A stretch of 64,000 bases of DNA from Psammoneis japonica (lineage: Eukaryota): the NCBI GenBank assembly GCA_008632985.1, contig QPGO01000126.1, positions 124,001 through 188,000 on the forward strand. Reading direction: 5' to 3'. Under the pieces are notes generated by a model. That model was not told the origin of the DNA. It ran no database searches and was given only the letters and a program-made list of their open reading frames with translations. The position numbers and the translations under genes are program-made. Of the stretch, positions 24,906 through 56,954 are shown one piece after another (position 1 is the first letter of the stretch; every line of letters begins with the position of its first letter).

Positions 24906-25129
24906 GCTTCTTCTTTTAGATTTCGGTTCTGTTCAGATGGAAGAATTAACAGTCTTAAAGAGGAGCAAAGAGTTCTCGCTTCTCGCCCTCCATTCCCTCC
25001 AACCTCAATCACAATCAATCAGTCGCAATCATCTACGATTTTGGGATTTTAGGTTTTGCTCACCGATTTATTTACGGACGATGGACAGCCCTGTGCTAAC
25101 CGACAGATATAAAATGCGCATGCATGCAT

Positions 25130-28065: not shown

Positions 28066-28715
28066 GAAGTTGATTGACGAAAGGCACCCCTTTTCTCGTT
28101 GTGTAAGTTGTTTAGTAACTTGGTTATTCAGTTTTATTTTCTATTATAGAGTATGTTATAAAGTATGCTACAGTGCATCGACATATCCTAGCATAATGAG
28201 CTAATGCTTAGCTCGAGCTTACAACAGGAAGAGATGAAGACGATCGCTTTCTGACTACTAGGGCCCTAGTACACGACTTCAAACCACAACACGCTCCAAC
28301 TGCAGCCGAATTTAGAAGACTTAGCTGTTCGATAGCTATCTAGTTGAAAACTACGATGATTTTGTGATGAAAGCTGTCTTTTCCGGCAATTGTTCGATTG
28401 GGTTGCCTTCGTTAGGATACGAGGCTTTATTTCGCAGAGGAAGGAATCGGGTGCAAAATCTTGGTCCCTGGAGATGCTGTGAACGAGCAATTGCTGCGCA
28501 CCGCGTAGTAGCTCCGACTGACAGAATAGCAGGGTTAGGACGCTGCTACGGTACCAAAACATGTCGCGTTACGTCTTCACAAATGCTGTCTTCTTCCCTC
28601 GGCTCTTTGTCTTGTCTCTAATCATGACATCTTGCTCTGGCTAGAGTCTTGCCAGTGGATGGGGCTGTCTGCTGAGAACCAAGAGAGAGGCGGGCCCCTA
28701 CGTGCCCTTTCTGGA

Positions 28716-32974: not shown

Positions 32975-33253
32975 GCTGTCGCCATGGGTAGATTTACGCA
33001 AAGAAGAAGGCGTGCGTGCTGTATTGTCCGTTTGGCTGTGCGATGCGATGCTTACCTGTATGCCGTGTTGAGCACTTTTCTGCGTCATCTGCTTTCTTGT
33101 CTGTGCGCGCCATTTTTGAGTTTCGACTTCCGAAGACACGCCGACACGCACAACGCACACCACGAGGCACGCAACATGCAACAAACTCACAACGGATGTA
33201 CGGTACCGACTTCAGATGCCAGTGAGTGTAAGAACGAATCGCATACTGTAACC

Positions 33254-36200: not shown

Positions 36201-36288
36201 CCATACTTGTGGCATAGTCATGGCCGCAGAGTACTATGAGCCAGCAAATTCGAACGCAAGACAGTTGTGGAAAATGAGTCGAGCATAG
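33254..36288 (+). CDS. RING-BRCT protein, copy 2 (interrupted by assembly gap)
   Basis: RING keeps Tyr (STYTNP, HAYCRD). N run lies inside exon 2. Confidence 0.75.
35631..36075. other. Assembly gap (N run)
   Basis: 445 Ns, about the length of the missing part of BRCT exon 2. Confidence 1.
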
Positions 36289-37061
36289 TTACGAAACTCT
36301 GAATCTACCTATAGAAATTTGATTCTGAATGAGGACACCCGTGCCTCCAGTCGAACCAGTTATTCAAACGAATTCCGATGGACTTCATCGTGTGGAACGG
36401 CGACAACCTCCTTTCCGTAGATAGTATCTAGAGGTTTTTCACTCGCATCCGCTTCTTGCTGTTTTCTCTATGGCATGTAGCTACCGGTAGGCTTAGAAAG
36501 AGAGCTATGTATCAACAATGCTGCTCGCCGTCCAAAGAAAAAAGTTGGTGTTTGAGTCGTGATTGACACGCTCGCGCCACCTCTCCCTGTTTGCCCAACC
36601 CAACTCACTTGTACCCGAAGGATCGTGCCTCAGCATTCATCCTTCATCCCAGCGGCTTTTTATTATTTTCCCATTACCGGTTTTTAGAAGCTCCACCGTC
36701 TTCCATCTTCGATCCTCCTCATGAAATCAAACCTTTTGCAAATAAAACGGAAAGATACATAGAGGAAACACGATCTTGTCGATCTCTTCTGTATCTCTCG
36801 TCCCTTTTATGGCGCTGCTCGCAGGAATTCCCAATTCCCTTTGTATCATTGAACCTCATGACTGAGGATCATGATTCATGTAACCATGACTGAACTTAGC
36901 CTTGCTTCAGATGCGTTGATCGATTTCAACACGATTGAGATCATCTGATTCTCTCCACTCTCCACGCTATCGGTCACTTTTTTAAACAGAGACGAGATCT
37001 GCTTCTCTCACAATCTAGAAACGCTCCTCTGTTCAAGGAAACAGCTGTCTTGCATTGTAAC

Positions 37062-38138
37062 ATGGCCTCTCGTGCTCATTGTCCTCCAGCCTCTGTCTCA
37101 AAGGGATCCGAAGCGACCGGCGTTCCCGAGAAGGAGCCGACTGTGCCGAAGCCGACCATTCTCCTCAACAATGCTGTCAACTACTCCCACGGTCATCGTA
37201 CGTCCCAAACAGTCTGGACTGTGTTGAAGACTAGCTTTGTGCTCGTCAGCCTTTTCTGGGGATACAATCACTTCGTTTCTAAGAAACCGTCAGTTAAGGA
37301 TGATTTGACATACTTCACTTCAGGTCTTCAGCGCCAAAATAACCTGGCCAGCATTGAGGACCTGCCAACAGACAGTTTTCATAAATGTGCTCAGGCATGT
37401 TGCGTCAAGTCATTTCATCCAGCAGACGAGGTCCGGCAGCTTCTTCGAAAGAAGCTCAATCGGTTGCCCGTTGAAGTTCGAGAAAGCATCATAGAAACAG
37501 TTGTTGAGGAAGGAGTCACCGACCTAAATTCCTTTGGTGATTCGACGGCGACGTTTGCGGCCGATGGTCGAGCACACTATTTCAAAGGCTTTTACTCTAC
37601 CGTCTGCGACGACACCTTCACGGTCTTCAAATCCAAAATGTACGCGACTTGCGTCGTTGCATCCGGAATCACCTTTGATGTTGCTGAAGCAGTGATCGAT
37701 TACAAACAAGAAACTAGGGAAGAGGTGGTTGGCGTGAAGCCATGCGAGTGTGGCTACTTTTGGTGTGCAGAGTGCCCTCTCACAAAAACCAAGACAGTCA
37801 AGACGCCCGTGTTCAAGCGCCATAGCCTGACTCTGAAGCAGCAAGGCCAACTTTCAGAATGGTTAAGGAGGGAAGCAATGATGGAAGCTGAAGATGTCGT
37901 TGGAACCGGGAGGACTATCCACATGAGTCCCCCCAGGGCACGACAACTCGACGACGCGATCAAGGACTTTGCAAAACCAGACTTGGAGGGTAGCTTCTAT
38001 CATCTGGAAGGGAACGCCTCCATTGCAGACACCCAATTCTCTAGAGAGAAAGTGTCGAGCATTGCACGTTCTCAGTTTGAAATTAGTTCAACTTGTGCCG
38101 GTGTTCGGTTGAGAGACTTGAATCCTTCCTTGTTGTAA
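37062..38138 (+). CDS. Unknown single-TM protein, copy 2, with stop-loss read-through
   Basis: ATTTAA in copies 1 and 3 reads ACCCAA at 38031-38036, extending the ORF by 34 codons. Confidence 0.6.
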   Translation: MASRAHCPPASVSKGSEATGVPEKEPTVPKPTILLNNAVNYSHGHRTSQTVWTVLKTSFVLVSLFWGYNHFVSKKPSVKDDLTYFTSGLQRQNNLASIEDLPTDSFHKCAQACCVKSFHPADEVRQLLRKKLNRLPVEVRESIIETVVEEGVTDLNSFGDSTATFAADGRAHYFKGFYSTVCDDTFTVFKSKMYATCVVASGITFDVAEAVIDYKQETREEVVGVKPCECGYFWCAECPLTKTKTVKTPVFKRHSLTLKQQGQLSEWLRREAMMEAEDVVGTGRTIHMSPPRARQLDDAIKDFAKPDLEGSFYHLEGNASIADTQFSREKVSSIARSQFEISSTCAGVRLRDLNPSLL

Positions 38139-38400
38139 CTCTAGTTGCAATTGGAATCGACGTGAACTGCAAATGCTAGCAGGAGACGTCCAACAGTTTT
38201 TCCTGGGACCGTCTGCAATGCAACCTGCAATCCTCCGAAAATGAAGTTCGCCTCGTAAGTTAACCCACAACCCGCGACCGACGTGCCATTGACGGAGCCA
38301 AAGGTTCAACAGAGATGTTGGTTTCGACACTGCAATTTCACGTTCATCGTACAAAGGGCGTGGCTCAGCGAAGTCGATCAAAGGGAGCAATGCCTTACAA

Positions 38401-39141
38401 TCATTTCCAAGAATGCAAACTTGCCCCTAAATCAATGGTGGCTTCTCCGTCCGGTGCAAAAGCCAAATCCCCATTGTGGACATTTTTCCACACGGAGGAA
38501 TCCCCCATTGATCTCAAGAGTGCTTCAGATGGAATGACGTTGCTGACACAAAACAGAATTCCTCCTGGTGCCGTCACTCGCGTCAATTCCGTTATAGAAT
38601 CTTGAAACACATCCTTCCCAGCAATGTGCATTGCATCCAAGGTGCCCTTGTCGAAAATGGCATCAATCGATTGATTCGGAATCATGCGCAAGTTTCTAGC
38701 ATCGGCCGTTGCCAAAGAGACATTGGCATTTCGCAGTCGATCGGGTCCAAACAGTTCCTTGGCACGATCAATTCCAGCTTGAGAATGATCAAAGGCTGTC
38801 ATGGTTTGGTTCCAGCCAGCATCGTGCAATTCGATGGGAGTCGGATCATTTCCCATGCCTGCCACCAAGACATGAGCTTGGCAATTGGGAACCAGTTCCC
38901 TCCAAAAGGGAGCAATTTCATTCCAACCGCAACTCCAAGAATGCGAACTCGAAGGACGATCTCCGACTCCCTCACGCATTTCATCCCAACAGCTCTTCAT
39001 CCCAAATTTACATTTCCCCGTTGTTTCATCCATGTTGGCATTCTTCGACGGCAACACTGCACAAGAAGAGTGCGACGATTGATGCAGTCGACCTTGCATG
39101 GCAAAGGCCACTGCAACAAGAGCTTTGGGAACGAAGACCAC
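38401..39141 (-). pseudogene. SAM methyltransferase, copy 2, hypermutated
   Basis: Tyr lost, often to a different residue than in copy 1. Confidence 0.75.
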
Positions 39142-39365
39142 ACTTCTTCTTTTAGATTTCGGTTCTGTTCAGATGGAAGAATTAACAGTCTTAAAGAGGA
39201 GCAAAGAGTTCTCGCTTCTCGCCCTCCATTCCCTCCAACCTCAATCGCAATCAATCAGTCGCAATCATCTACGATTTTGGGATTTTGGGTTTTGCTCACC
39301 GATTTATTTACGGACGATGGACAGCCCTGTGCTAACCGACAGATATAAAATGCGCATGCATGCAT

Positions 39366-41008
39366 GTCTCTCGCTCTGAGATCCCTCAATTTTCATGTCA
39401 CTGGTGCCGTGCTCATTGCCACTGTCCTTGCATCTTGTTGGATTGATCAGACACAGCAGTCTGACAGGTTATGGCCTTCATTAGATTGTTCTGCTGTGTC
39501 AAGAACAACTGATTCGTTTTTTTTTTTGGCAGACGAGACGATGCCCTTGCTTCTTGTGTCCCTCTCGGGTGCAGAAAGCAGCTGCAGGCACGTCAGCAGA
39601 GGGTCATCAGCACTGCAGAAGACATGCTGGAGCCTGTGGGTGTTTTTTTCTGCACCTCCAGCATGACCAAAGATGAGAAAAATGGCAATCTTCTCAAGAT
39701 TGTCAAGACCACTTTGCTGTCAATTTCAGCCCCCTTCACATCACCCTTGTTTTGCTCTCCAAACGATGCTGGCACACTGCTGCTGTGTCCTCAACCACAG
39801 CTTTGCACCAACAATTGCCTTCCCCTGGGCAACATTCTGGGTGGCTTCACTCCTTGTGGTCTGTGCAGCAATTCCACGCCAATCATTTGTCAGAAGATTC
39901 TCCAGGACTTGATCGTTCTTCAAGCAGCGGCTCTGCGCACTCTTTGAAAAGAAGGCACACCTCTGCCAGGTGCTGTCAGCAACCCAAATGGACCTCAGAA
40001 ACATCTGAACTTCTTCTCCTCTTTGCAGAAGACTGCGCTCCAAGCAACATGATTTGACAATGATGGCGCTGTTGAGATTCACACTGGGGCAGTGTTGCTC
40101 TTTTTCTGACACCCGGCATTGCATCACACAGGTGCTCGCCACATGCTCTCCAACGGCTGTCCTCCAGATGATCAACCCTCTGACTGCAACCTCTTCAGGT
40201 GCTCCTGCCCCTCACTTGACATGGGAGTCATTTTTAAATGTCGCAACACACGCACCTCCCACTCATTCTTGACAACATCAACAGCTTGGCATGAGAGACC
40301 ACACCAGCAGATTGCACACTGCAAGCAACCACACTGCAGCTCACCTTTGCCTCTCTGCAAGACAACAACCAATCAGCAAACCATGGCCCATGGCACCCAC
40401 ACATGCCCAGCTTTGGGAGGCCCTGCCTGAAAAAAGCGCACATCATCACCCAGCATGTTGTGCCAGCTCCCTGGGTGTGCTGCTGTCTGCTGCTGCTGGT
40501 CAGCAGCACATTGCTGAAGCAGCCGCAGCAGCACGCTGCTGATGTTTTGTTTGTTGCCTGGGTCATGAGAGCATTGCTGATGAGAGTTCCTTGGCAGTGT
40601 CTTTTGGGATTGTTTTTTCTGTGACAGAACCCTCTTTATGTTGAAAAGAGCCAGGGGTGTGCGAGTCATGCAAGCAATGTGTCACAGCTGCTGCAGCAAT
40701 GGAGTGGCTTGAGCTCAATGTCCTGCTCATCTGGTTGTGGCCATCATGCAGGCATCAGATGAGTGGGCAATGACAACACTCTTCTTTTTCACATGCGCCG
40801 CTTTTTGAAACATGAGTTTTTTCCTTGGTGGGGCACAGCCTTGGTGCATGCTGCTGTTTGTTTTGGTGCAAAAATTGCCACAAAATGATTTCAAACCTGG
40901 ACAGAGATCCCTTTTCCTGTTGGCCTGAGCTTGCATTCCAACCCTGGGTGGGGCTGTGCACGACATTGGGCCCACAGAGTTCTGTGCACAAGCTCTGCAG
41001 CAAAGTCA
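39366..41008. mobile_element. Decayed TpA/CpG-depleted tract, copy 2
   Basis: Near-identical to 25130-26773. Confidence 0.45.
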
Positions 41009-41462
41009 TCAGGGAGGCACAGCACGGGCATCTTTATCGTGCATTTGTGAAAATGAATGAATCGCGATGGCTGCATTTGAAATGATGTGTGGCGCCCTGT
41101 CTCTGCTAGAGCAGAATTCAAAGTGTTGAGGCAGGTGTCAACCGTGTCATGAATGCGCCACCACGTCGTGTGTTCTCCACGAATAAATCCGCGAACTGCC
41201 CCTCATCAGAGGACAATTCGTCGGAACTCAGATTCCTTTCAATGTACCGCCATCAGTAACATTTCTACGAGATGTCGGGAATGAAAGAAGGAGCGCTCTT
41301 ACCACCGCATGTTTCAGTCGCACAATCCAATCGCGCTTGTGTGATGCATCGTGCGTTCTCATCACAGAAGATTTTCGCATCTGCTCGCATCTGGCATCTT
41401 CTTCAATCTCTCATATCTGCAGAACACAAAAAAAAGATACCTAAAGATACGCTTTCGAGACA

Positions 41463-42298
41463 ATGGCCAAGAGACTCGCGACTCAGATTGTGATTGCCGC
41501 CTTTCAGGACGAAGAGGCTGTGGATGCCGTTGAAACGGCAGTCGCCAGTGCAGAATGGGACGCCAAGCAAATCATTTGCACCAACATGGCCAAGGCCAAA
41601 AAAGACAAGGCTGGCAAAATGTCCGTCAAGGAATTAGGAAAGCCGAGCGACGTTGGAGCTGCAGCCACGGGCGGTGGTATCGGTGCGGTCTTGGGTGGAT
41701 TGGCTCTTTGTTTGCTGGGACCAGCAGGAGCGGCGGCTGGTGCCGCTGCCGGAGGAGCCACCGGAGCGGCTATCGCTGGCTATGCCAATCATCAAGTGGA
41801 GGGTCTTGACAAGGACAAGCTCCAAAAGCTTGGGACGGCTCTCAAACCCGGCACTTCGGCCATTGTCTTGGTTTTCGATGAAGTTATTGTCTCCAAGAAG
41901 GATATTGAAACCGAGTTGGAACTATGGAAGGAAGGTACCGACTTGTTAGTGGATTCCATGACGACCAAGATTACCGAACACTTGGAGGCCGGTGACGACA
42001 TTGCCTATCATTTGGCGTTGGGTGCCGATGGATTTACCGGTTCGCGTTTTGTACTTGGAAAGGACGCCATGAATATCCATAACTTGGTCTTGACGCCTGA
42101 TTCATTTCGGCGGAAGAATTGACCGCCACGGAGGATGGTGTTGCCTTGGAGGCGGCTGTTGCCACGCCGGAACAGCTCACGACGGCTCGTGCCTTGCTCA
42201 CGTCTTCGGTATGTGCTTATGAAGTCACGGCTATGACAGAGGATGAAGCCGTCTATGAAGCTGGTGTTGCAGTCGCGGATAAACAGTTGGAAGAATGA
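41463..42298 (+). CDS. DUF1269-like protein, copy 3 (1-nt deletion ~42100, possibly a sequencing error)
   Basis: Otherwise identical to copies 1 and 2. Confidence 0.65.
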
Positions 42299-42948
42299 GA
42301 AGTTGATTGACGAAAGGCACCCCTTTTCTCGTTGTGTAAGTTGTTTAGTAACTTGGTTATTCAGTTTTATTTTCTATTATAGAGTATGTTATAAAGTATG
42401 CTACAGTGCATCGACATATCCTAGCATAATGAGCTAATGCTTAGCTCGAGCTTACAACAGGAAGAGATGAAGACGATCGCTTTCTGACTACTAGGGCCCT
42501 AGTACACGACTTCAAACCACAACACGCTCCAACTGCAGCCGAATTTAGAAGACTTAGCTGTTCGATAGCTATCTAGTTGAAAACTACGATGATTTTGTGA
42601 TGAAAGCTGTCTTTTCCGGCAATTGTTCGATTGGGTTGCCTTCGTTAGGATACGAGGCTTTATTTCGCAGAGGAAGGAATCGGGTGCAAAATCTTGGTCC
42701 CTGGAGATGCTGTGAACGAGCAATTGCTGCGCACCGCGTAGTAGCTCCGACTGACAGAATAGCAGGGTTAGGACGCTGCTACGGTACCAAAACATGTCGC
42801 GTTACGTCTTCACAAATGCTGTCTTCTTCCCTCGGCTCTTTGTCTTGTCTCTAATCATGACATCTTGCTCTGGCTAGAGTCTTGCCAGTGGATGGGGCTG
42901 TCTGCTGAGAACCAAGAGAGAGGCGGGCCCCTACGTGCCCTTTCTGGA

Positions 42949-45900
42949 TTACGACCAGTTGTGTGCTTTTAAACAGAAGATTAAGGGAGCCCATGTAGAG
43001 CGGAAGGGAACAGCAGAGGGAGGCACGGAGGCAGCTGTAGAGACGGCAGAGTAGAAGGGTCGAAGGACGCAAGACGAAGGGCGTTTTGAGGAAGGCATGG
43101 GTGAGGAGGGAGCAGGGAGAGAGGAAGTGAATCGGAGGATGTGCGTAGAAAGGTGAAGAACGACGTTGCAGGCAAGAGTTTGGGTGGCCCACTGGGATGG
43201 GGTGGCCGCACGGCAGGTGTTCCCAAAGCGATCGGCGGACAGGCGACGCCATTCGAAGTCAGCGGAGGGAAGGATTGCAGACGGAGACGACAAAGCGTAG
43301 AGCGAGGAAGGCGGAGCAGGAGGCATCGGAGTGACGAAAGTCAGAGGAAGAGGACCAGGGTGGCTTGGGCTGAGAGCCGATGGAGGAGGATGTAGAACCA
43401 AAGAGCAAGCGGTGAGCAAAGCAGCCGAGACCACCAAGGTGATCTACAGTGAAGGGGAGCAGGAAGATGCCATCGTTGTCAAGCGAAGAAACAACAAGGG
43501 ATCCATCGGCAGAGGAAGTGGAGGGGCCAAGAAACTTCAATCTCGTGCTCGAGTGGTGTGCCTCAGTTAAAACAGGAGAAGAGGGGGCAGGCAGACCTGG
43601 AGGAGGGCGAGAGGAAGCTTGAGGGACGGCAACGTCCACTGCAATGTAGTGATGGCGGGAGGGAGTGGAAGGGAGGCGGGAGGGGGGATTAAAATGCCGA
43701 CATCAGCGGGACGGAGGAGCGGGCGGGTGGGGAGCAGGTTGGTGGGTTCAAGATGAACGTCATTGGGGGATCGACAGAACTCTGCAAGAGGACCCAAAGT
43801 TTGGGCTGGGATGAAAACAGTGCACCGAGACCATTGGAGAGCTTGGACTTGTGAGCACGGCGGCAAGAAAAGGCATGATCACCACAGGCATCCAGGATGG
43901 CATGGCCACAGGGACAGGGAGTGTTGACAAGGGACGGAGGAAGGATGGGGAGACGAAGCTTGCGAAGGGCGGCAATGACGCAGGCGTCCGAAGAAAGGCG
44001 GGAGCTTGGGAAGCGACGGAGAAGGAATGAAGAGGGAGGCTTGTAAGCGGAGATGGCAATGAAGGGAGCGAAGATTGCACGTCGTGACATGAGTTGGCAA
44101 GGATGGAGGTTGCTGCTTGCTGCTGATGTTCATGGCAGAGGCGACAAGCCAGGCCAGGAAGAGTGGCCGATTTAACCAGGGCAGCCAAGGAAGAAGAGGA
44201 AAGGGTGGAGGCGGAAGCCAGAGCGGGAGCATGACGGCGGAAGAGCGCACAGAGTCGCAGGGAAGAGCGAGGGTTGGACCAGGAAGACAGGGAGAGCCGA
44301 AAGCAGTGCGGAAGGGAAACAGAAGCGCCAGATGGCAGGCTGACACCGTGCGAAGCAAAGCGGAACGAGCGGAGAAGCGACACCAAGAAGGAAGGAATGG
44401 CAGCAGCTGTTGGATCTCGGAGACCAAACCCGCCTGAGGAGGCAGGAAGGAAGGCGATGGCAATAGAATGATCAGGAAAAGGAGCGGCGAAGGAAGTGAC
44501 GCAGTGAAGAAAGCGGTGAGTGACGGTGAGGAGGAAATCTTGAAACGGAGAGGTCCAGAGAAAGGGGTCGGGAGGATTGTCGGGGTCGAAGTTGTGGCAG
44601 AAGTCAGCCCCAAGGAGGTGAGCAGAGGATGGAACAAAACAGTGCTTGAAGAGTTGAGCCTGGGTTTGTTTGTCATGAAGACGGGTGAGAAGCACATCAA
44701 CTTTGTCGGAGAGAGCAGAGGAAGTGTCGGAAAGGAAGGAGGTGGTGAAGTCGTGGGAGCCGAGGGGCTGTCCGAGGAAGCAAACACCAGAGGTGAGTTC
44801 GGGGTTGTGGGAGGGGTCATTGGCAGGGTTTAAGAAGGAAAGTGCAGCACAGAGAGGATCGGCACGGGAAGGGGGAAGAGCAGGGATGGGGCTAACACCG
44901 GCAATGGAGGTGAGGATCTTGGTTTTACGGAGGTTGAGGGAGATCCCGCAGGGAGCGCCGAGGGCGGAGAAGCGTTCAAGGAACCATGGGAGCACGGAAT
45001 GGGGAAGGAAAGCATGAGCATCATCAACGCAGGAGCCAACTGAGACAGAGGAACGGCCAGGGATTCGTTCTTGAAGTTCTTGGTTGATTGGACGAAGAAC
45101 CAGAGAGAGGACTGGGCTGGCGAAGACAGGGCCGAGAGGGCATCCTTGGGCAAATCCCTCTTCTTGAAGAAAGGAGCCCCAGGAAGAATCGGGTCGGCGA
45201 TACCAACATGCGTTGGAACTTTGACACAGAAGGTCAAAAAAAGGAAGCAGAGGATGGAAGGCAGGGGTGGAGGTGAGAACGTGTCGACAGGCATCTCGGG
45301 ATGCTTCGTTGAACACATTGACAAGGTCAAGAAGAAGAAGAACCTTGGTGGAGTCGGCGGAAGAAAGACATTGTTCAATGTTGGCAAGAGCAGAGTGAAT
45401 GAGACAATCGAGGCCACCTTTGACACCAATGCCAAATTGGCCATCTGGGAGGAGACATTCGGTGAATGCAGAACCAAAGAGAGTCATGACGACGGAGCCA
45501 GCAATGCGACGGAGAGCAGTGCCGACGCCAATGGGGCGAAGCTTGTTGAGGTCGCTGGCATCTTCATGCAGAGCGACAAAGCAGTTTGAAGCAAACAAGG
45601 AATGGACGGAGGGAGGAATGGAGCCATGGAGAAGGAGAAGGACAAGCTCACGGAAGGATGACAAGCAGGGACGTTGAGCAACTCCTGTCGGGGTTTTGGC
45701 AGAATGAAGGGCGCAGGACTTGAAGAGGTCGGTAGAATCAGCAAAGACGCCGGCAGCAGTCCCAGGCTTGCATTTGGAGAGAGCAGAAAGAAGAGCGTCG
45801 GAGGAGAGCTCAATGGGCTCGTCATGAAGGGAGGAGGCCAAGCGAGTTGAAGGAGGATCAGGCAGGTCGGAGGGATGCAGGCGAGGAGGGTAGAGCTTGA

Positions 45901-47201
45901 GGATGGTGGGAAGGCATTCAGGAGCAACGGCAGCAACAGGAAGCGCAGAGGTGAGCTTGGAGCAGGCCGAGTGAAAGTCATCTTCGTCGGCGCAGACTTG
46001 AGCGGAACAGCAACATGTGGAAGCAGAAAAGTCGGGGGAAGATGAGGAGAGGCGCGGCGCATGGAGCAGGCTTCGTGGCAGAGTTGGCGAATGCAGCCAC
46101 GGCGGAAGAGGGACAAGCGGGAGGCAATGGTGGGGCCAAACTTGGAGCGTGGCGGAACAGGAGCAAGAATGAGAGCTTCAAAGAGTAAGAGAAGCTTCCA
46201 GAAGGGAGTGGAGTCACGTTGCCACGTAGGAATGAGATGGGAAGGGTCAGACAGGGGCTGGGAGGCGGCCAGCACCCAGCTTGTCACATGGTGAAGAGCG
46301 GAGCAGAGTTCCTTGCGGGCAGAGGACGAGAGCTTGCGGCGACAGGAAGCTCGGAAAGGCGGAGGCTTGAGTGCAAGAGCATGGAGCCATTGTAGCGAGG
46401 GACCCCAGTCACCTAGATTGTGGAAGGACGAGAGAACAATGTCAGTGTTGAGGGAAGAGCGAGGAGCAAAGTGCTTGTTCTGCAAGTGATTGCGGAGGTG
46501 GGTGGCAGACAGGTGGGTGTGTTGGCCACGATTGCAATGCCTGCAGACATGCAAACCAGCGGTGTCAAAGAAGGACGTAGGTGCATGAGAAAGGGAGAGG
46601 CAGGGATGCTCCTGGCAAAGATGGCTGCGCACAGTGGCAGGAAGAGATGATGCATCAATGGAAGGAGGGGACCAGGAGCAGAAGGGGCAAGTTGGCGGGG
46701 CACGGGCTTCGGTGGGCTCCACGAGGCGATGAGGTCGCGGAGGGAGTCGATGTCAGGGGCTGCAGCCCGGATGGCTTCTTCGTAGAAAGGTTTCCAGGCA
46801 GAAAGGCGGCCGGGCAGCAAGCACCTACGAAGGCATCAAGGACATCCAAGAGTTCCATCTCGCGCTGGGACTGCTGAGGAGAAACCGAGTCATCAGATTC
46901 GGTCTGCACAATTGCATCGGGAGTGGTGGGGGGCGGAGAGGTCTGCACAACTACGGCAGGAATGGCAGGGGGTGGAGAGGAAGCATCGGGAGAAGAGTGG
47001 GGGCGCTTGGAGGGAGGAGGCTCGGCAGTGAGGGAGCGGGCTTGGGAGGATGGGAGGAAGGAGATGCAGCAGTGGGGAGCGGATCTTGGGGTTTGGGGAG
47101 CTGCCAGTCTTGAGCAAGCAGCTCGAGGGCACGACACGAGAAAGAATCTCGAGAGGGGGCAGGCGGCTGAAGAGCAGCAGAGGCGTGGGATGGGAAGCCA
47201 T
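42949..47201 (-). mobile_element. RLE-type non-LTR retrotransposon, copy 3
   Basis: Same motifs, with extra 1-nt deletions mostly in homopolymers. Confidence 0.9.
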
Positions 47202-47478
47202 GCTGTCGCCATGGGTAGATTACGCAAAGAAGAAGGCGTGCGTGCTGTATTGTCCGTTGGCTGTGCGATGCGATGCTTACCTGTATGCCGTGTTGAGCAC
47301 TTTTCTGCGTCATCTGCTTTCTTGTCTGTGCGCGCCATTTTTGAGTTTCGACTTCCGAAGACACGCCGACACGCACAACGCACACCACGAGGCACGCAAC
47401 ATGCAACAAACTCACAACGGATGTACGGTACCGACTTCAGATGCCAGTGAGTGTAAGAACGAATCGCATACTGTAACC

Positions 47479-50400
47479 ATGGAATCAACTGATGTTGTCG
47501 CTGCTTCTACCAATGAGGAAGTGTCCGTGGCAAGCAGCTGTACGAGCGAGTATCAGACGGCGCCAGAGGATCTCGAGCCGAGTCAACAACTAAAGCCCGT
47601 TTCAGAGCTCGCAGCCGTTCCAGAAGAAGAAGAAACAACACAAGAAGCGTCTCCGGTTCAGCTCTGGCATTCGATGCATGCGGAATTGCAAAATATTTGC
47701 AAGTCTCTATCGTGTTCGTTGTGTTTGAGCACCTATACAAATCCCGTCATTTTAGACTCGTGCCTTCACGCATACTGCCGAGACTGTATTTTGCGTGCGC
47801 TGCAGGAAAATAAAAAGTGTCCTTTATGTGGCAACAAAGCCACGAGACGTTCTCTGGTGGATGCTCCGCATTTCGAGTCACTCGTCAAGGCATACAAGCA
47901 CGTATCTCGTGCCATGGGACTGACTCCTATGGAGTATGACGAGGAATTGGAAGGGTGCATGACACAGCTGCCGCCTGAAGAACAAGAAGGAAACAAGGCA
48001 TCGCTGTTGGATTGTCATGTGCATTTGCAAGTCTCCAAAACGTGGCATGACGTGTTGCAACGCACATCTCATCATACGACACAAGAAGAGCGCCTATTAC
48101 AAGAACGGGCCAAGGTTGTAAAGGCAAACGAGCGTGCTTTGGTCAAAGCTGCAGTGAGACAGCAACAAGAAAAGCAGAGTAGCAGAGCTGCAGCAGCTGA
48201 ATCCAAATCGCCACAAGAGTCACCCAAGTTGGTAACCTTTGCCACCAAGAATGATTCTTCTCAACGAGATAACGACGAAAACTCGCATACCACCATCAAC
48301 AACGAAGAGGAAGAGGAGTTTCTGACTGGAAACGAGGAACAACCACCAGACGTACCGCCGACGAGCCAAGAGCTTCGTGACGCTTCCATGGAACAAGAAG
48401 CGACCAATCGTCCCGCCGAAGACATGCTACATGAAGAGCAAGTGCTGCAAGAATCCGCCACCAGCATGGTGCCGCCCACGAGCCAAGAAATTCGAGACGC
48501 CTCCATGGAACAAGAAGCGGCCGATCGCTCCGCGGAAGATATGCTTTATGAAGAGCAGCAAGAATCATCCACGGCCAACACGCAGGACTTATTTAGTCCC
48601 AACACACGCGAAACCATGAGACGTCTTAGCAAGGAAGCCAATGATGTGTTGGAGTCTCTTCACAAGCCGTCCGAAAGCAGCAATAGTAACGATAATGATG
48701 ATGACGATGGTATGGTGGCAGAAGTTTTGAATCTCGAAAAGGCAACCGAAGGCTTGCGTCGTGAATTAGACCGACCCGATCTCAAGAGACAAGCCATGAG
48801 TAGTAGTGGCGAGGGATTAATGCACGAGACGGAAGCATCATTGCCGAATGATGAAACCGACGATGCTTCGTTTGCGAATGATAACGAAAACAACGATTCA
48901 TCCGAGAGCAGCGACTTTGATCAAACGGCAGGGACGCAAGATATTCGAGATATTCTGGATTTGCCTCCGCCCCGCAAGCGCTCGCAACCTCAAGAAGACA
49001 AGGAGAACCAAACTCCAACTCAGAACCAAGCTTCGACACCAGCGACTAGAGTGGTTGAAAAGAGCATTCCTGAAGAAGTACCTCAGCAAAAGAACCGCAA
49101 CAAGAAGTAGAACGTGAAGACGAGCCATCGCACTACGCTGTGGGGACGGTGGTGCAGATTCAGTCGCGAACGTGGCCGGGTGTCAACAAACCGGGTGGTG
49201 TTGCGCGGATATCTAAGGTATCGCTTGAACCATCCATTACCTATGACGTTTCCTACGTGTTGGGTGGTAAGGAAAAGTCGGTCGATGCAGGATTTGTATC
49301 ACTCTACAACGACAGCATGAAGCAAGAGCAAAAGGCTAGGCGAGTGACCGTCAAAGAAGAATCATCATTAGAAATTCCAGCGTCTCTTTTGTTGAAACTT
49401 AAGGCTAGTGGATTTGCCACTGACGCCAAGACGGAACGCGCCGTATTGAACAAGGCGAAAAAGGAAAGGGAATCCAAGACGGACCACACGAAGGCGACGA
49501 AAGTATTGAAAAAGGCGGCGAAGAAGGCTCCAACAAAGCCGGGCGACAAGCGTACTAATAGTAAAGCCCCAAAACCGAAGCCTAAGCGTCGCAAACGAGA
49601 CCTTACCGACAACGAAAAAATCGATTTGGCCGATGCTCATTATGCCGAATGGTTTCAACAGGCTCAAAGCAATGGCATTGTATACGTGGTGTCTTCGTTT
49701 CTATCTGATCGAGACAATGACTTGTTGCAGTTGCTCTGCAAAGAAACTAGAAAATCAAAAGGTTTGTAGCTGACCGATACGAACCGCTCGCAGCGTCTAC
49801 CATTCCACTCACTTCCACTTTGTGCTTCTTCTTTTCAGTGGTCGTGAAAGTTTCAAGCGTGTTTCACCCGTCCAAAACGACACTTTGCGTCATGCCAACT
49901 GCGCCGAAAGATCCTACTACCTCTCGGAACCGGTCTCTCAAAGCAATGAGAGCCTCTCTAGCTGGAGTGCCGATTGTGTCGCCCGATTGGATCTCGACTT
50001 GTCTCGAGAAGAAGGAAGTAGTCGAGCCCACCACCTTTATCCGAACCATTACGACTCGCACGACGCAACTTGTCATCTCACCGAAGCTCCAGCTTGGCAT
50101 AGCCTTGACCGCTGCAAGAATCCGCGCCCATCAAGCCTTGCCTCTTCACAATGTACATGTTTTTTTGTGTGGGTCTTTTGCTTCGCCACGCAAAGTGGAT
50201 ATTCACGTGTTGCTGCGGGAATCTGGGGCACATCTTTTGTCGTCCCTAACGGCAACCACGAAAAAGCTTAAGAATCTCTCGAGTGATGATGATGAGACGG
50301 TAGTCCTCTTGTGCGATGATGCAGAGTCGACAAGCTTGTCTGATGCATTGGTAAATGCTGCAACGAGAGCCATAGACTCTGGCTCTGGAGTTTTGGCGGT

Positions 50401-50512
50401 AGACGCCGCTTGGCTTTTTGATTCCATTACTTGTGGCATAGTCATGGCCGCAGAGTACTATGAGCCAGCAAATTCGAACGCAAGACAGTTGTGGAAAATG
50501 AGTCGAGCATAG
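47479..50512 (+). CDS. RING-BRCT protein, copy 3 (1-nt deletion in A run ~49090, possibly an error)
   Basis: Three ORFs colinear with copy 1. Confidence 0.75.
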
Positions 50513-51285
50513 TTACGAAACTCTGAATCTACCTATAGAAATTTGATTCTGAATGAGGACACCCGTGCCTCCAGTCGAACCAGTTATTCAAACGAATTCC
50601 GATGGACTTCATCGTGTGGAACGGCGACAACCTCCTTTCCGTAGATAGTATCTAGAGGTTTTCACTCGCATCCGCTTCTTGCTGTTTTCTCTATGGCATA
50701 GTAGCTACCGGTAAGGCTTAGAAAGAGAGCTATGTATCAACAATGCTGCTCGCCGTCCAAAGAAAAAAGTTGGTGTTTGAGTCGTGATTGACACGCTCGC
50801 GCCACCTCTCCCTGTTTGCCCAACCCAACTCACTTGTACCCGAAGGATCGTGCCTCAGCATTCATCCTTCATCCCAGCGGCTTTTTATTATTTTCCCATT
50901 ACCGGTTTTTAGAAGCTCCACCGTCTTCCATCTTCGATCCTCCTCATGAAATCAAACCTTTTGCAAATAAAACGGAAAGATACATAGAGGAAACACGATC
51001 TTGTCGATCTCTTCTGTATCTCTCGTCCCTTTTATGGCGCTGCTCGCAGGAATTCCCAATTCCCTTTGTATCATTGAACCTCATGACTGAGGATCATGAT
51101 TCATGTAACCATGACTGAACTTAGCCTTGCTTCAGATGCGTTGATCGATTTCAACACGATTGAGATCATCTGATTCTCTCCACCCTCCACGCTATCGGTC
51201 ACTTTTTTAAACAGAGACGAGATCTGCTTCTCTCACAATCTAGAAACGCTCCTCTGTTCAAGGAACAGCTGTCTTGCATTGCAAC

Positions 51286-52260
51286 ATGGCCTCTCGTGCT
51301 CATTGTCCTCCAGCCTCTGTCTCAAAGGGATCCGAAGCGACCGGCGTTCCCGAGAAGGAGCCGACTGTGCCGAAGCCGACCATTCTCCTCAACAATGCTG
51401 TCAACTACTCCCACGGTCATCGTACGTCCCAAACAGTCTGGACTGTGTTGAAGACTAGCTTTGTGCTCGTCAGCCTTTTCTGGGGATGCAATCACTTCGT
51501 TTCTAAGAAACCGTCAGTTAAGGATGATTTGACATACTTCACTTCAGGTCTTCAGCGCCAAAATAACCTGGCCAGCATTGAGGACCTGCCAACAGACAGT
51601 TTTCATAAATGTGCTCAGGCATGTTGCGTCAAGTCATTTCATCCAGCAGACGAGGTCCGGCAGCTTCTTCGAAAGAAGCTCAATCGGTTGCCCGTTGAAG
51701 TTCGAGAAAGCATCATAGAAACAGTTGTTGAGGAAGGAGTCACCGACCTAAATTCCTTTGGTGATTCGACGGCGACGTTTGCGGCCGATGGTCGAGCACA
51801 CTATTTCAAAGGCTTTTACTCTGCCGTCTGCGACGACACCTTCACGGTCTTCAAATCCAAAATGTACGCGACTTGCGTCGTTGCATCCGGAATCACCTTT
51901 GATGTTGCTGAAGCAGTGATCGATTACAAACAAGAAACTAGGGAAGAGGTGGTTGGCGTGAAGCCATGCGAGTGTGGCTACTTTTGGTGTGCAGAGTGCC
52001 CTCTCACAAAAACCAAGACAGTCAAGACGCCCGTGTTCAAGCGCCATAGCCTGACTCTGAAGCAGCAAGGCCAACTTTCAGAATGGTTAAGGAGGGAAGC
52101 AATGATGGAAGCTGAAGATGTCGTTGGAACCGGGAGGACTATCCACATGAGTCCCCCCAGGGCACGACAACTCGACGACGCGATCAAGGACTTTGCAAAA
52201 CCAGACTTGGAGGGTAGCTTCTATCATCTGGAAGGGAACGCCTCCATTGCAGACATTTAA
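51286..52260 (+). CDS. Unknown single-TM protein, copy 3 (intact frame, 324 aa)
   Basis: MASRAHCPP..., hydrophobic VWTVLKTSFVLVSLFWG and a CECG.FWC..CP motif. No family recognised. Confidence 0.6.
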   Translation: MASRAHCPPASVSKGSEATGVPEKEPTVPKPTILLNNAVNYSHGHRTSQTVWTVLKTSFVLVSLFWGCNHFVSKKPSVKDDLTYFTSGLQRQNNLASIEDLPTDSFHKCAQACCVKSFHPADEVRQLLRKKLNRLPVEVRESIIETVVEEGVTDLNSFGDSTATFAADGRAHYFKGFYSAVCDDTFTVFKSKMYATCVVASGITFDVAEAVIDYKQETREEVVGVKPCECGYFWCAECPLTKTKTVKTPVFKRHSLTLKQQGQLSEWLRREAMMEAEDVVGTGRTIHMSPPRARQLDDAIKDFAKPDLEGSFYHLEGNASIADI

Positions 52261-52618
52261 TTCTCTAGAGAGAAAGTATCGAGTATTGTATATTCTCAGT
52301 TTGAAATTAGTTCAACTTGTACCGGTATTCGGTTGAGAGACTTGAATCCTTCCTTGTTGTAACTCTAGTTACAATTGGAATCGACGTGAACTGCAAATAC
52401 TAGTAGGAGACGTCCAATAGTTTTTCCTGGGACCGTCTGCAATGCAACCTGCAATCCTCCGAAAATGAAGTTCGCCTCGTAAGTTAACCCACAACCCGCG
52501 ACCGACGTGCCATTGACGGAGCCAAAGGTTTAACAGAGATATTGGTTTCGATACTACAATTTCACGTTCATCGTATAAAGGGCGTGGCTCAGCGAAGTCG
52601 ATCAAAGGGAGCAATGCC

Positions 52619-53365
52619 TTACAATCGTTTCCAAGAATACAAACTTGCCCCTAAATCAATGGTGGCTTCTCCGTCCGGTGCAAAAGCCAAATCCCCATTA
52701 TGGATATTTTTCCACACGGAGGAATCCCCCATTGATCTCAAGAGTACTTCAGATGGAATGACGTTGCTGACACAAAACAGAATTCCTCCTGGTGCCGTCA
52801 CTCGCGTCAATTCCGTTATAGAATCTTGAAATACATCCTTCCCAGTAATGTATATTGCATCCAAGGTACCCTTATCGAAAATAGCATCAATCGATTGATT
52901 CGGAATCATGCGCAAGTTTCTAGCATCGGCCGTTACCAAAGAGACATTAGTATTTCGCAGTCGATCGGGTCCAAACAGTTCCTTGGCACGATCAATTCCA
53001 GCTTGAGAATAATCAAAGGCTGTCATGGTTTGGTTCCAGCCAGCATCATACAATTCGATGGGAGTCGGATCATTTCCCATGCCTGCCACCAAGACATGAG
53101 CTTGGTAATTGGGAACCAGTTCCCTCCAAAAGGGAGCAATTTCATTCCAACCGCAATACCAAGAATACGAACTCGAAGGACGATCTCCGACTCCCTCATA
53201 CATTTCATCCCAATAGCTCTTCATCCCAAATTTACATTTCCCCGTTGTTTCATCCATGTTGGCATTCTTCGACGGCAACACTACACAAGAAGAGTGCGAC
53301 GATTGATGCAGTCGACCTTGCATGGCAAAGGCTACTGCAACAAGAGCTTTGGGAACGAAGACCAT
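52619..53365 (-). CDS. Class I SAM-dependent methyltransferase (METTL13/EEF1AKMT4-like), copy 3, least mutated
   Basis: YWDEMY, YSWY, VLVAGMGN (motif I), FDYS, DAR, FDKGTLDA, PGG. Confidence 0.85.
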   Translation of the reverse strand: MVFVPKALVAVAFAMQGRLHQSSHSSCVVLPSKNANMDETTGKCKFGMKSYWDEMYEGVGDRPSSSYSWYCGWNEIAPFWRELVPNYQAHVLVAGMGNDPTPIELYDAGWNQTMTAFDYSQAGIDRAKELFGPDRLRNTNVSLVTADARNLRMIPNQSIDAIFDKGTLDAIYITGKDVFQDSITELTRVTAPGGILFCVSNVIPSEVLLRSMGDSSVWKNIHNGDLAFAPDGEATIDLGASLYSWKRL

Positions 53366-53589
53366 ACTTCTTCTTTTAGATTTCGGTTCTGTTCAGATGG
53401 AAGAATTAATAGTCTTAAAGAGGAGCAAAGAGTTCTCGCTTCTCGCCCTCCATTCCCTCCAACCTCAATCGCAATCAATCAGTCGCAATCATCTACGATT
53501 TTGGGATTTTAGGTTTTGCTCACCGATTTATTTACGGACGATGGACAGCCCTGTGCTAACCGACAGATATAAAATACGCATGCATGTAT

Positions 53590-55790
53590 GTCTCTCGCTC
53601 TGAGATCCCTCAATTTTCATGTCACTGGTGCCGTGCTCATTGCCACTGTCCTTGCATCTTGTTGGATTGATCAGACACAGCAGTCTGACAGGTTATGGCC
53701 TTCATTAGATTGTTCTGCTGTGTCAAGAACAACTGATTTGTTTTTTTTTTTGGCAGACGAGACGATGCCCTTGCTTCTTGTGTCCCTCTCGGGTGCAGAA
53801 AGCAGCTGCAGGCACGTCAGCAGAGGGTCATCAGCACTGCAGAAGACATGCTGGAGCCTGTGGGTGTTTTTTTCTGCACCTCCAGCATGACCAAAGATGA
53901 GAAAAATGGCAATCTTCTCAAGATTGTCAAGACCACTTTGCTGTCAATTTCAGCCCCCTTCACATCACCCTTGTTTTGCTCTCCAAACGATGCTGGCACA
54001 CTGCTGCTGTGTCCTCAACCACAGCTTTGCACCAACAATTGCCTTCCCCTGGGCAACATTCTGGATGGCTTCACTCCTTGTGGTCTGTGCAGCAATTCCA
54101 CGCCAATCATTTGTCAGAAGATTCTCCAGGACTTGATCGTTCTTCAAGCAGCGGCTCTGCGCACTCTTTGAAAAGAAGGCACACCTCTGCCAGGTGCTGT
54201 CAGCAACCCAAATGGACCTCAGAAACATCTGAACTTCTTCTCCTCTTTGCAGAAGACTGCGCTTCAAGCAACATGATTTGACAATGATGGCGCTGTTGAG
54301 ATTCACATTGGGGCAGTGTTGCTCTTTTTCTGACACCCGGCATTGCATCACACAGGTGCTCGCCACATGCTCTCCAACGGCTGTCCTCCAGATGATCAAC
54401 CCTCTGACTGCAACCTCTTCAGGTGCTCCTGCCCCTCACTTGACATGGGAGTCATTTTTAAATGTCACAACACACGCACCTCCCACTCATTCTTGACAAC
54501 ATCAACAGCTTGGCATGAGAGACCACACCAGCAGATTGCACACTGCAAGCAACCACACTGCAGCTCACCTTTGCCTCTCTGCAAGACAACAACCAATCAG
54601 CAAACCATGGCCCATGGCACCCACACATGCCCAGCTTTGGGAGGCCCTGCCTGAAAAAAGCGCACATCATCACCCAGCATGTTGTGCCAGCTCCCTGGGT
54701 GTGCTGCTGTCTGCTGCTGCTGGTCAGCAGCACATTGCTGAAGCAGCCACAGCAGCATGCTGCTGATGTTTTGTTTGTTGCCTGGGTCATGAGAGCATTG
54801 CTGATGAGAGTTCCTTGGCAGTGTCTTTTGGGATTGTTTTTTCTGTGACAGAACCCTCTTTATGTTGAAAAGAGCCAGGGGTGTGCGAGTCATGCAAGCA
54901 ATGTGTCACAGCTGCTGCAGCAATGGAATGGCTTGAGCTCAATGTCCTGCTCATCTGGTTGTGGCCATCATGCAGGCATCAGATGAATGGGCAATGACAA
55001 CACTCTTCTTTTTTCACATGCGCCGCTTTTTGAAACATGAGTTTTTTCCTTGGTGGGGCACAGCCTTGGTGCATGCTGCTGTTTGTTTTGGTGCAAAAAT
55101 TGCCACAAAATGATTTCAAACCTGGACAGAGATCCCTTTTCCTGTTGGCCTGAGCTTGCATTCCAACCCTGGGTGGGGCTGTGCATGACATTGGGCCCAC
55201 AGAGTTCTGTGCACAAGCTCTGCAGCAAAGTCATCAGGTGATTCTTGCCAGCAGGAAATGAGGGGCAATTTTGTGAAAACCTGTGAACTTCACATTTGAG
55301 GCACGCCACCTCCAGCTTGCCCAAACATTAAAAAAATGCCCAGCCACTTTTTGTTCTTAAAAATGATGAAAATTAAAAGCCTGTGGCTTCACAAAACAGG
55401 GAGCATCAAACAATTTTGCAGAAGATCCGAGTGCAGAAAACCTCTCACATGACAGTGCAGCAAAAGGTCCCACCCAGAGCTGGAGCACATTGAGAGCTTC
55501 TGTGTTTGGGGCCAATGTGAGAAAGCAGGCTCCACACTGTGTCTCCCTGAGAAGGGGATCTCCATTTCTGAGCACAGTGCTCCACATCTGCTGGGGGCAT
55601 CTCTCATGATGTCAGTGTTTGCTGCACACAAGGAGTCGGCTGGCCTGTGAAGAAAACATCCCTGCCACTCTCCAATGGTTTCAAATTGCTTTCAACAACT
55701 CAACCCTTGCAAAATCTGTGAATCTCTGCTGTGATTGGCAGTCAAAACAGGGCAGTCAGCAATCAGTCGCCCATGGGGTAAATTGACAGT
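53590..55790. mobile_element. Decayed TpA/CpG-depleted tract, full-length version crossing the right amplicon boundary
   Basis: Same composition continues ~550 bp past 55238. TA returns abruptly at ~55790. Confidence 0.45.
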
Positions 55791-55907
55791 GCACACAATA
55801 CAAGAAACGCAGGCAACTACTAGAGGGGCATTTGCAGAGTCGAATTTTCTGTTTTGTTTTTCTTTTCTCTAGAGTATCACATTGTACTATTTTCTAAACT
55901 TGGTTCT

Positions 55908-56954
55908 TTACGCACTCATTTTGTTTCCAAAATGATCCGGAGCTTCTTGCACCTTTTGCAAGACCCCGACAAAGTACCGAACATCCTGAGTATCTTGATC
56001 GACAATGGGTCCCGCCTGGATGCGATTGTGAAACTTTTCACCCTCCTTGTTGTAATTGGTGAGAATGGTCGAGGTCGATTTGCCGTGGAGCAACTCGTCC
56101 ATCATGTGCTGGACGGCGTCTGTTTGCGTTTCGGGTCCCTGCAGCAGCTTTCCGAGACTCTGGGAACGAGCTTCGTCTTGGGTATATCCACACAGACCGA
56201 CCCATGCGTCATTGACGGCGACAATCTCAAAGGGAGCTGTGGGCTTGGTAACGACAATGGCGCGGGGATCCTCGTAATTTCCGAGTGCCTCGTAGAGCGA
56301 TGTGGGAAGCAGGGGCACATGTTCTTGTAGATTCAAACTCTTTTTGAGTTGCGCGTCCGCGGCTTGTTGTATCAAAAGAGATCCAAAATCGGATTCGGGA
56401 CTTGCCAGATTGTAAGCGGTCGTGGCGAGAGACTCGCGGAGACACTCGGGTTCTTGCACAAAGTGAATATAATCCTCTCGGGCATGAGTGCGGGGTACAT
56501 CTTGGTGGCAGAAATCAGCATCGGGCGATGCAAAGGATAGCGATTCTGACCACTCGTGTGTGGGTGGATTGAGCGGCTCGGCACTGACGTAATCGGCTTC
56601 GGGTGAAGCAAAACTAAGAGACTGAGACCATTCGGCAGCTTCGTTTCTGGAAGAGTCACAGAAATCGGCTTCGGGACTTGCAAAGCTGAGCGAATCGGAC
56701 CATTCAGGACTTTCGTGCTTTTCCAGTGATCCACACGTAAAGTCGGATTCGGGCGATGCAAACGAGAGGGACTGGGACCATTCGGCTGGTTCTTGTCGAA
56801 CGGCACCACATACAAAATCGGATTCGGCTCCGGCAAACGACAAACTACCGGACCAGGCCGTCAGGGCACGAGCGGCGGTTCGTCTCGTTGTTACACCCAG
56901 TAGTCTCTTGGCCGCTAGTCGGCTTCCGCGTTGCATGACTGCCAAGCTTGTCAT
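55908..56954 (-). CDS. PAS (LOV-like, Cys-less) domain protein with five WSxSLSFAxxxxDF repeats
   Basis: AIVVT..PFEIVAVNDAW..LCGY..LLQGPET..LTNYNKEG..F.N. Arg-rich N-terminus resembling a mitochondrial presequence. Confidence 0.85.
   Translation of the reverse strand: MTSLAVMQRGSRLAAKRLLGVTTRRTAARALTAWSGSLSFAGAESDFVCGAVRQEPAEWSQSLSFASPESDFTCGSLEKHESPEWSDSLSFASPEADFCDSSRNEAAEWSQSLSFASPEADYVSAEPLNPPTHEWSESLSFASPDADFCHQDVPRTHAREDYIHFVQEPECLRESLATTAYNLASPESDFGSLLIQQAADAQLKKSLNLQEHVPLLPTSLYEALGNYEDPRAIVVTKPTAPFEIVAVNDAWVGLCGYTQDEARSQSLGKLLQGPETQTDAVQHMMDELLHGKSTSTILTNYNKEGEKFHNRIQAGPIVDQDTQDVRYFVGVLQKVQEAPDHFGNKMSA

Follow-up and report, generated by a model that had tools for sequence, protein, structure and literature searches.

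Probable localised A>G hypermutation at TpA within a 14.2-kb tandem repeat of Psammoneis japonica

A 2026 preprint on the chlorarachniophyte Bigelowiella natans (Mettrop et al., bioRxiv 10.64898/2026.01.13.699255) describes, in its abstract, Results and Discussion, two integrated viral regions in which 231 de novo mutations arose; with one exception, these were A>G/T>C. According to those sections, all of the A>G/T>C mutations lay at TpA and they arose in only some of the mutation-accumulation lines. Among the TpA-poor, CpA/TpG-rich stretches and the TpA-poor coding sequences, reverse transcriptase was over-represented. The agent was proposed to be an adenine deaminase of ADAT2-like type, and DNA activity is there said to have been reported for a few ADAT2 proteins (10.64898/2026.01.13.699255). 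Here, we describe a comparable signature in Psammoneis japonica, where a window of 64,000 nucleotides (assembly GCA_008632985.1, contig QPGO01000126.1, positions 124,001 to 188,000 of the forward strand) carries a 14.2-kb tandem repeat containing a methyltransferase gene. All coordinates below are those of the window, that is, of the whole stretch that was analysed. A literature search for this signature in diatoms found no report, its sole match being the B. natans preprint.

As in the sections of the preprint named above, the changes at this locus are almost exclusively A>G/T>C, fall at TpA and are regionally confined, and TpA depletion with CpA/TpG excess is found in mobile sequence. The B. 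natans study concerned single-copy inserts of nucleocytoplasmic large DNA virus (NCLDV) and virophage origin, followed in real time in lines of a chlorarachniophyte, whereas the present case involves a probable diatom and a comparison of paralogs. Furthermore, the targets described there are viral; here, they are host genes with diatom orthologs and a retroelement, all within a tandem repeat. A preference for TAY (Y, pyrimidine) and the total loss of tyrosine codons, both seen here, are not mentioned in the abstract, Results or Discussion of the preprint.

The locus also resembles the targets of fungal repeat-induced point mutation (RIP), as known from Neurospora and other species, where dense transitions at one dinucleotide strike repeats and transposons, duplicated host genes are inactivated and dinucleotide composition becomes skewed. 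RIP, however, is C>T at CpA and makes TA and stop codons, while A>G at TpA removes TA and cannot make stops. APOBEC3 and AID likewise produce clustered, motif-specific transitions in foreign or mobile DNA, serving as a defence, but theirs are C>T at TC/CC or WRC, and APOBEC clusters are strand-coordinated; adenine chemistry without overall strand coordination is seen here. With ADAR, ADAT2-ADAT3 and TadA the locus shares a target A preceded by U/T and an A>G outcome, although those enzymes act on RNA and the differences here are heritable and in DNA.

TpA specificity of the differences between copies

Self-BLAST and a three-way MAFFT alignment resolved three head-to-tail units of ~14.23 kb in the window, among which 207 of 14,246 alignment columns vary. 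The units, to which no strand is assigned, and their methyltransferase genes are as follows.

12543-26773: tandem unit copy 1, the most heavily hit, with hits at alignment columns 1560-12747
26774-41008: tandem unit copy 2, nearly identical to copy 3 over columns 1-11247 and resembling copy 1 over columns 11286-14246; interrupted by a gap of 445 N at 35631-36075
41009-55238: tandem unit copy 3, the least changed, which keeps TA at nearly all variable sites
24165-24905, minus strand: methyltransferase of copy 1, open frame with 0 Tyr (Tyr>His/Cys) and Ile171>Thr
38401-39141, minus strand: methyltransferase of copy 2, open frame with 0 Tyr (Tyr>His/Cys/Arg/Ser) and start codon ATG>GTG
52619-53365, minus strand: methyltransferase of copy 3 (Pfam Methyltransf_11/25), 248 amino acids with 9 Tyr; the conserved Tyr positions all match orthologs

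A preliminary description, made from the sequence alone, had reported about 25 differences in ~1 kb between copies 3 and 1, nearly all of them TA to TG or CA. Over 52619-53600 we count 28, of which 26 are at TpA: 17 A>G after T and 9 T>C before A, so that both strands are hit as had been proposed, together with 2 G>A after C. The 43 TpA dinucleotides of copy 3 occupy 86 of the 982 bases, and at least 26 of 28 differences would land there by chance with P = 1e-25. Comparison of copy 3 with copy 2 gave a similar picture (32 differences, 29 at TpA). The five example sites quoted in that description are present as written (alignment columns 12222-23, 11713-14, 12373-74, 11942-43 and 11860-62).

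The fates of the 43 TpA sites bear on when the changes occurred. Fifteen are intact in both other copies and 17 show the same change in both; 7 are reciprocal (one copy reads TG where the other reads CA), 2 more are altered in both copies in other ways (TG/CT and TG/CG) and 2 are changed in copy 2 only. The claim that the events postdate divergence of the copies therefore holds for 9-11 of the changed sites, which are independent and later. It does not extend to the 17 of 28 changed sites that are identical in copies 1 and 2, as these were most simply inherited from the common ancestor of the two copies.

The same specificity is evident over the whole unit. Of 169 gap-free transition columns, 154 are in YpR (pyrimidine-purine) context, and 95/323 TpA sites vary as against 35/2,783 other YpR sites (P = 1e-69). 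An older internal repeat of a flanking gene served as a control (3237-3559 versus 3582-3907, 86.5% identical): transversions make up 19 of its 41 mismatches, and TpA is not favoured. The TpA signature is thus not the general divergence pattern of this genome.

Direction of change and state of the struck genes

The direction of change in the methyltransferase was assessed by alignment with 32 diatom-type orthologs, in which the three copies differ at 19 columns. At positions 51, 56, 67, 70, 106, 119, 171, 172, 243 and 247, the residue of copy 3 is shared by 25-32 of 31-32 orthologs, whereas copies 1 and 2 match 0-1; at nine of these ten positions copy 3 has Tyr or Ile, and at the other it has Arg. 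Among the 19 variable columns, none favours the opposite direction. The orthologs hold Tyr or Ile as copy 3 does, the reverse of the His or Cys that the preliminary description had named as the contrary outcome.

A conserved open reading frame (ORF) adjoining the methyltransferase was polarised with 61 homologs. Tyr208 is Tyr in 60/61 homologs and Cys in copy 1, and copies 2 and 3, with TA, likewise hold the state that the homologs favour at positions 192, 246, 158, 282 and 215. Copy 3 has itself changed TA>TG at position 194, where 54/61 homologs have Thr. None of the seven positions contradicts a change away from TA. A search for RING-domain orthologs with which to polarise the copy 1 hits in a further gene of the unit returned 44 candidates, none at E <= 0.001. 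The ortholog states in the methyltransferase and the conserved ORF indicate that TA is ancestral and that the change was A>G on either strand (A>G or T>C). Read from these alignments, the direction is opposite to that of fungal RIP.

The TA/CA/TG pattern taken alone resembles fungal RIP, and the reverse scenario, a RIP-like C>T process (CpA>TpA) striking copy 3, would also suit 8 unpolarised copy 3 changes in a flanking element (V, below), which read C>T/G>A if copy 3 is derived. Nonetheless, we assign it next to no probability. Orthologs support copy 3 at 10/10 informative positions, copy 3 contains no stop codon though ~29 such changes would be needed, and the three-state sites would each require 3-4 changes rather than 2. 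For the methyltransferase and the conserved ORF, the orthologs refute the reverse direction.

The changes have left a distinctive footprint in the proteins. All nine Tyr (9/9) are lost from the methyltransferases of copies 1 and 2, because Tyr codons are TAY, and such codons would be prime targets of a TAY-preferring process. Conversely, the frames of the damaged copies stay open, since TA-containing stop codons can only be destroyed and not created by such changes; no new TA-containing stop codon was found in any copy. The ATG>GTG start change of copy 2 is also at TpA. In copies 1 and 2, a CGA>TGA change makes the methyltransferase end two codons early. Relatives of this protein number 88, and every named one is from a diatom (Cylindrotheca, Chaetoceros, Detonula, Bacillariaceae), the best being 63% identical. 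The proposal that a host gene had been destroyed while one copy survived is borne out in so far as copy 3 is intact and copies 1 and 2 are devoid of Tyr; loss of function is itself deduced from conservation, as the frames remain open.

Each unit contains, in order, a DUF1269 gene, a minus-strand retroelement, a RING + BRCT gene, the conserved ORF, the minus-strand Methyltransf_11 gene and the left part of element V. In copy 3 the plus-strand genes are:

41445-42122, plus strand: DUF1269 gene, within columns 1-1500, with very high word depth in run X2 of the same sample
47032-50512, plus strand: RING + BRCT gene
51286-52260, plus strand: conserved ORF, function unassigned

Two of these genes have been altered in the other copies. 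The conserved ORF of copy 1 has 7 Tyr>Cys/His changes and its frame is broken by a 1-base gap (23149-23150), while in copy 2 its stop codon is lost (TAA>CAA) and reading runs on (38032-38036). Three adjacent T>C changes (TTT>CCC), one of the three at TpA, lie near 38032-38036 of copy 2. The 5' part of the RING + BRCT gene in copy 1 (18790-19722) carries 7 Tyr>Cys/His changes plus other TpA hits. At 49760-49836, an X2 contig skips 77 nt with GT..AG ends and so fuses the RING and BRCT frames; this is likely to be an intron of a BRCA1/BARD1-like gene and fits a spliceosomal intron. Elsewhere in the window, two neighbouring genes (2-1246 and 1740-4262) encode Pro/Thr-rich proteins with repeated Cys-rich modules (CTDxYG...CTCTL), whose internal repeats diverge with an ordinary substitution spectrum.

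The reality of the variants was assessed over 40500-56000 by comparison with contigs from X1 and X2, two further runs of the same sample. One X2 contig is identical to copy 3 for 1,190 bases (0 differences, 52295-53484), spanning the whole methyltransferase. A second has 11 differences in 47500-49759, which equals the copy 1 difference count there, and a third is copy-2-like, with 8 differences in 51203-52283. In X1 contigs, G/C states occur at many sites alongside TA states, a mixture to be expected of bubble-popped contigs. With the haplotypes present in the contigs of both runs, an artefact of long-read consensus is unlikely. The contigs also speak against a chimeric consensus at the kilobase scale, a concern that the preliminary description had raised.

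An artefact of assembly, polishing or base calling (miscalls at modified TpA, or chimeric consensus) is accordingly highly improbable in our estimation. Palindromic modified motifs are known to introduce A>G/T>C errors into nanopore consensus sequences, copy 2 contains the N gap, and the X1 depth ratio of ~1.9 between the unit and its right flank is a misfit to three copies. However, the contigs of the other two runs reproduce the haplotypes (1,190 bases with 0 differences; 11/11 copy 1 states), the TA states match orthologs while the G/C states do not, and long common blocks, such as the 11 kb over which copy 2 matches copy 3, resemble the outcome of descent rather than of random error.

Run X2 looks RNA-derived, given the GT..AG skip, the lack of cover on the retroelement or on V, and the very high DUF1269 depth. 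If so, the intact methyltransferase copy is transcribed. Contigs of the copy 1 and copy 2 methyltransferases are absent from X2, which says nothing about their expression.

Regional clustering, sequence context and TA-exhausted elements

The hits are not spread evenly along the unit. No TpA site varies in columns 1-1500 (0/54) or 7501-9500 (0/57; together 0/111), whereas 58/87 TpA sites in columns 10001-12500 are changed in at least one copy (P = 2e-28 against 0/111). Smaller clusters occupy columns 1560-2209 and 6251-7183, and the TpA sites are extremely heterogeneous (chi-square 114, 17 d.f., P = 2e-16). The densest tract lies next to one of three stretches in which TA is all but exhausted:

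50901-53739 in copy 3 coordinates, no strand assigned: densest hit tract, columns 9908-12747
42967-47200 (bounds approximate), minus strand: retroelement with a reverse-transcriptase ORF (RVT_1); equivalents at 14502-18740 and 28734-32973
53753-55790, no strand assigned: element V, 2 kb with 5 TA and 22 CG and sharp edges; copies 1 and 2 at 25293-26773 and 39529-41008
11250-12500, no strand assigned: element U, just left of the array, CG-poor, with 2 TA in 1,250 bases

Neutral decay of redundant copies under a genome-wide bias, without local targeting, would not readily yield such clustering. TA is under-represented across the window, with an observed/expected ratio of 0.3-0.8 even in ordinary genes, as that explanation would have it. 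Against this stand the heterogeneity among TpA sites and the normal spectrum of the older repeat at 3237-3907, and we regard neutral decay as a highly improbable account.

Hit clusters abut the retroelement, V and U. In the retroelement, the TA observed/expected ratio is 0.06-0.25 with CpG near 0.75; in U and V, TA is at 0.03-0.2, and CA and TG stand at 1.4-1.9 across all three elements. X1 word depth on the retroelement reaches ~4,000, compared with ~117 for the rest of the unit, which marks it as a member of an abundant family. The variants of this family in X1 are all transitions, with no TpA context left to read. Its ORFs contain 2 Tyr in 806 residues and 0 in 423. When aligned with 38 related reverse transcriptases, the retroelement keeps 130/159 consensus positions and 0/4 consensus Tyr, all four being Cys.

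Element V contains the right breakpoint of the unit (55238). Its CA/TG content is 1.6-1.9x expectation, its word depth in X1 is at the level of the unit (no extra copies), and it has no X2 cover. The ORFs of U are rich in His/Cys and without Tyr. Neither U nor V has extra copies within the window. Pfam analysis of three ORFs of V found no recognisable protein, and a protein-atlas look-up with one ORF each of U and V gave nothing usable. A T-run at the left edge of V (~53741-53751) may represent the poly(A) of a retrocopy on the minus strand. In copy 3, V (54264-55186) carries 8 copy-3-only changes, which are C>T/G>A if copy 3 is derived, 4 of them at CpG; these four would, on the same condition, fit cytosine methylation of V.

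The two internal junctions of the array are identical and have only TCAGG microhomology in common with the right flank (26769-26778, 41004-41013 and 55234-55243). Comparison of U with V revealed no sequence similarity, which means that flanking repeats did not give rise to the duplication. These features suggest a single duplication through microhomology, with unequal crossing-over thereafter. Copy 1 is the odd one out over columns 1560-11247, where copies 2 and 3 agree, while from column 11286 onwards it is copy 3 that differs from copies 1 and 2. This arrangement fits a two-copy array with one heavily hit copy, to which a third copy was added by unequal crossover near columns 11248-11285; it also fits additional hits having separated the methyltransferases of copies 1 and 2 after that gain. 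X1 word depth, which is not equal to copy number, falls from ~117 in the unit to ~62 in the right flank (the ratio of ~1.9 given above).

Analysis of the bases around the target revealed a preference for TAY: where the target A is followed by C/T, 87/216 sites are hit, as against 33/190 where it is followed by A/G (P = 4e-7). A following G is disfavoured (18/104 hit). RTAY sites (R, purine) are hit in 39/55 cases and YTAR sites, a favourable context on neither strand, in 12/42, and the base before T (-2) has no effect on hit rate. At the A/G columns, A precedes in 3/88.

That last count bears on a further possibility, namely that error-prone repair synthesis by a polymerase-eta-like enzyme at WA motifs (W, A/T) took place during recombination between tandem copies. 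In somatic hypermutation, the chief hot spot of polymerase eta is A>G at TA. Additionally, tandem copies recombine, and the block pattern fits unequal crossover near columns 11248-11285. Polymerase-eta mutagenesis, however, strikes AA as well as TA and yields transversions; here AA is nearly spared (3/88) and transversions are rare, at ~10 gap-free columns against 169 transition columns. The TA-exhausted single elements U and V are also hard to explain by recombination repair. Taken together, these points make such an origin very unlikely.

The sequence context likewise argues against ADAR-type editing of double-stranded RNA subsequently copied back into DNA. ADAR prefers a 3' G, whereas a pyrimidine is preferred after the target here (G: 18/104). 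In this respect, the preference resembles that of TadA, whose substrate loop is U-A-C, rather than that of ADAR. ADARs are not known outside animals. Here, genomic DNA itself is changed, including stretches between and upstream of genes, and the changes are present in X1 contigs. That the two most heavily hit genes are convergent, and that the 5' U preference discussed in the sections of the preprint cited above matches (10.64898/2026.01.13.699255), are in keeping with ADAR, yet we judge this route exceedingly improbable.

The later hits in copies 1 and 2 coincide beyond chance: 9 sites are hit in both, 0 and 2 in one copy only and 15 in neither (P = 2e-5). RTAY context is found at 6/9 of the coincident sites, and because RTAY is favourable on both strands, it explains much of the reciprocal TG/CA pattern. 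The reciprocal orientation nevertheless comes in blocks. Over columns 96-6026 (copy 1 12638-18565), copy 1 reads CA at 6 such sites, followed by 4 with TG; within the methyltransferase (52705-53366), the order is TG,TG / CA,CA,CA / TG... A runs test per lineage found no overall strand coordination (29 runs where 30.5 are expected in region A of copy 1, P = 0.40), and the notion of strand-coordinated hit clusters was dropped. Region A holds ~59 strand-hits in one lineage against 13 in its partner. RIP strikes both copies over their shared length; at this locus, the hits lie within a repeat but are patchy and very unequal between copies.

These observations bear directly on whether duplication itself is the trigger. 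A homology-sensing, RIP-like defence acting by adenine deamination could leave reciprocal TG/CA from the unpaired strands of paired copies. Consistent with this, the hits lie within a tandem repeat, the high-copy retroelement is TA-exhausted, the later hits of copies 1 and 2 share sites beyond independence, and the reciprocal sites fall in orientation blocks. Against it, large duplicated parts are untouched (0/111 TpA), the lineages of region A are unequal, RTAY context alone makes both strands hot, and the runs test gave no overall strand coordination. Moreover, U and V are without extra copies in the window, V being at unit-level X1 depth, and the B. natans target is reported, in the sections of the preprint cited above, as single-copy (10.64898/2026.01.13.699255). 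On balance we hold a duplication trigger to be unlikely.

Proposed mechanism and meaning

We consider that localised A>G hypermutation at TpA, on either strand and preferring TAY, probably acted on parts of the 14.2-kb repeat in what is likely to be a diatom nuclear genome. By this mechanism, TA becomes TG or CA through A>G on one or other strand, most readily at TAY. Start and stop codons are removed, as are those for Tyr, Ile (ATA), Leu (TTA) and Val (GTA). The same process has probably exhausted TA earlier in the high-copy retroelement, U and V, with the fresh hits falling in adjoining sequence. As proposed for B. natans, we infer that a DNA-directed adenine deaminase is at work, which would convert A to inosine that is read as G at the next replication. 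Targeting may be directed at mobile, foreign or silenced DNA and spread 0.4-3 kb into neighbours, in which case the methyltransferase hits would be collateral. Such collateral damage, already proposed in the preliminary description, would be in keeping with the hits adjoining TA-exhausted elements.

Several observations weigh against this interpretation. The evidence comes from a single locus. Some ~24 transition columns are CpG<>TpG/CpA and ~15 lie outside YpR, so a second, ordinary process contributes; CpG>TpG/CpA would account for the ~24 columns, for the shared CGA>TGA early stop and for the CpG depletion of U and V. Hits are far more numerous in copy 1 than in the partner lineage, a misfit to a process striking both members of a repeat, and the orientation blocks are not fully explained by independent hot-spot hits. 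X1, X2 and the assembly are probably from one sample, and their support is hence not independent of strain. An X2 contig carries the copy 1 form of the RING gene, which means that a hit copy is not necessarily silent. Finally, the X1 depth ratio does not fit three copies per haploid genome, copy 2 contains the N gap, and copies 1 and 2 could in part be alleles strung together by the assembler; this would change the history of the array but not the mutation signature.

A bolder reading of localised TpA hypermutation, which we put forward tentatively and with considerable doubt, is that diatoms may possess a heritable genome defence that mirrors fungal RIP. An adenine deaminase would act at TAY on nuclear DNA, aimed at repeated or mobile DNA by homology or by silencing marks and spilling into host genes that adjoin it or were duplicated with it. 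Tyr and stop codons would be erased, leaving genes that are 'open but dead', and the block-wise reciprocal TG/CA would record deamination of the two unpaired strands during pairing of copies.

If real, this would be the second sighting of TpA-specific A>G hypermutation, in an algal lineage other than that of the sole published case, and would suggest that the process is widespread among marine protists. The locus adds a direction of change established from orthologs instead of assumed, a TAY preference, host genes struck together with a retroelement where viral inserts alone had been described, and a protein footprint of Tyr>His/Cys in open frames. Dead genes of this kind pass ORF-based gene callers and so matter for annotation. 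The process would also bear on models of mutation rate and on the search for a natural DNA adenine deaminase.

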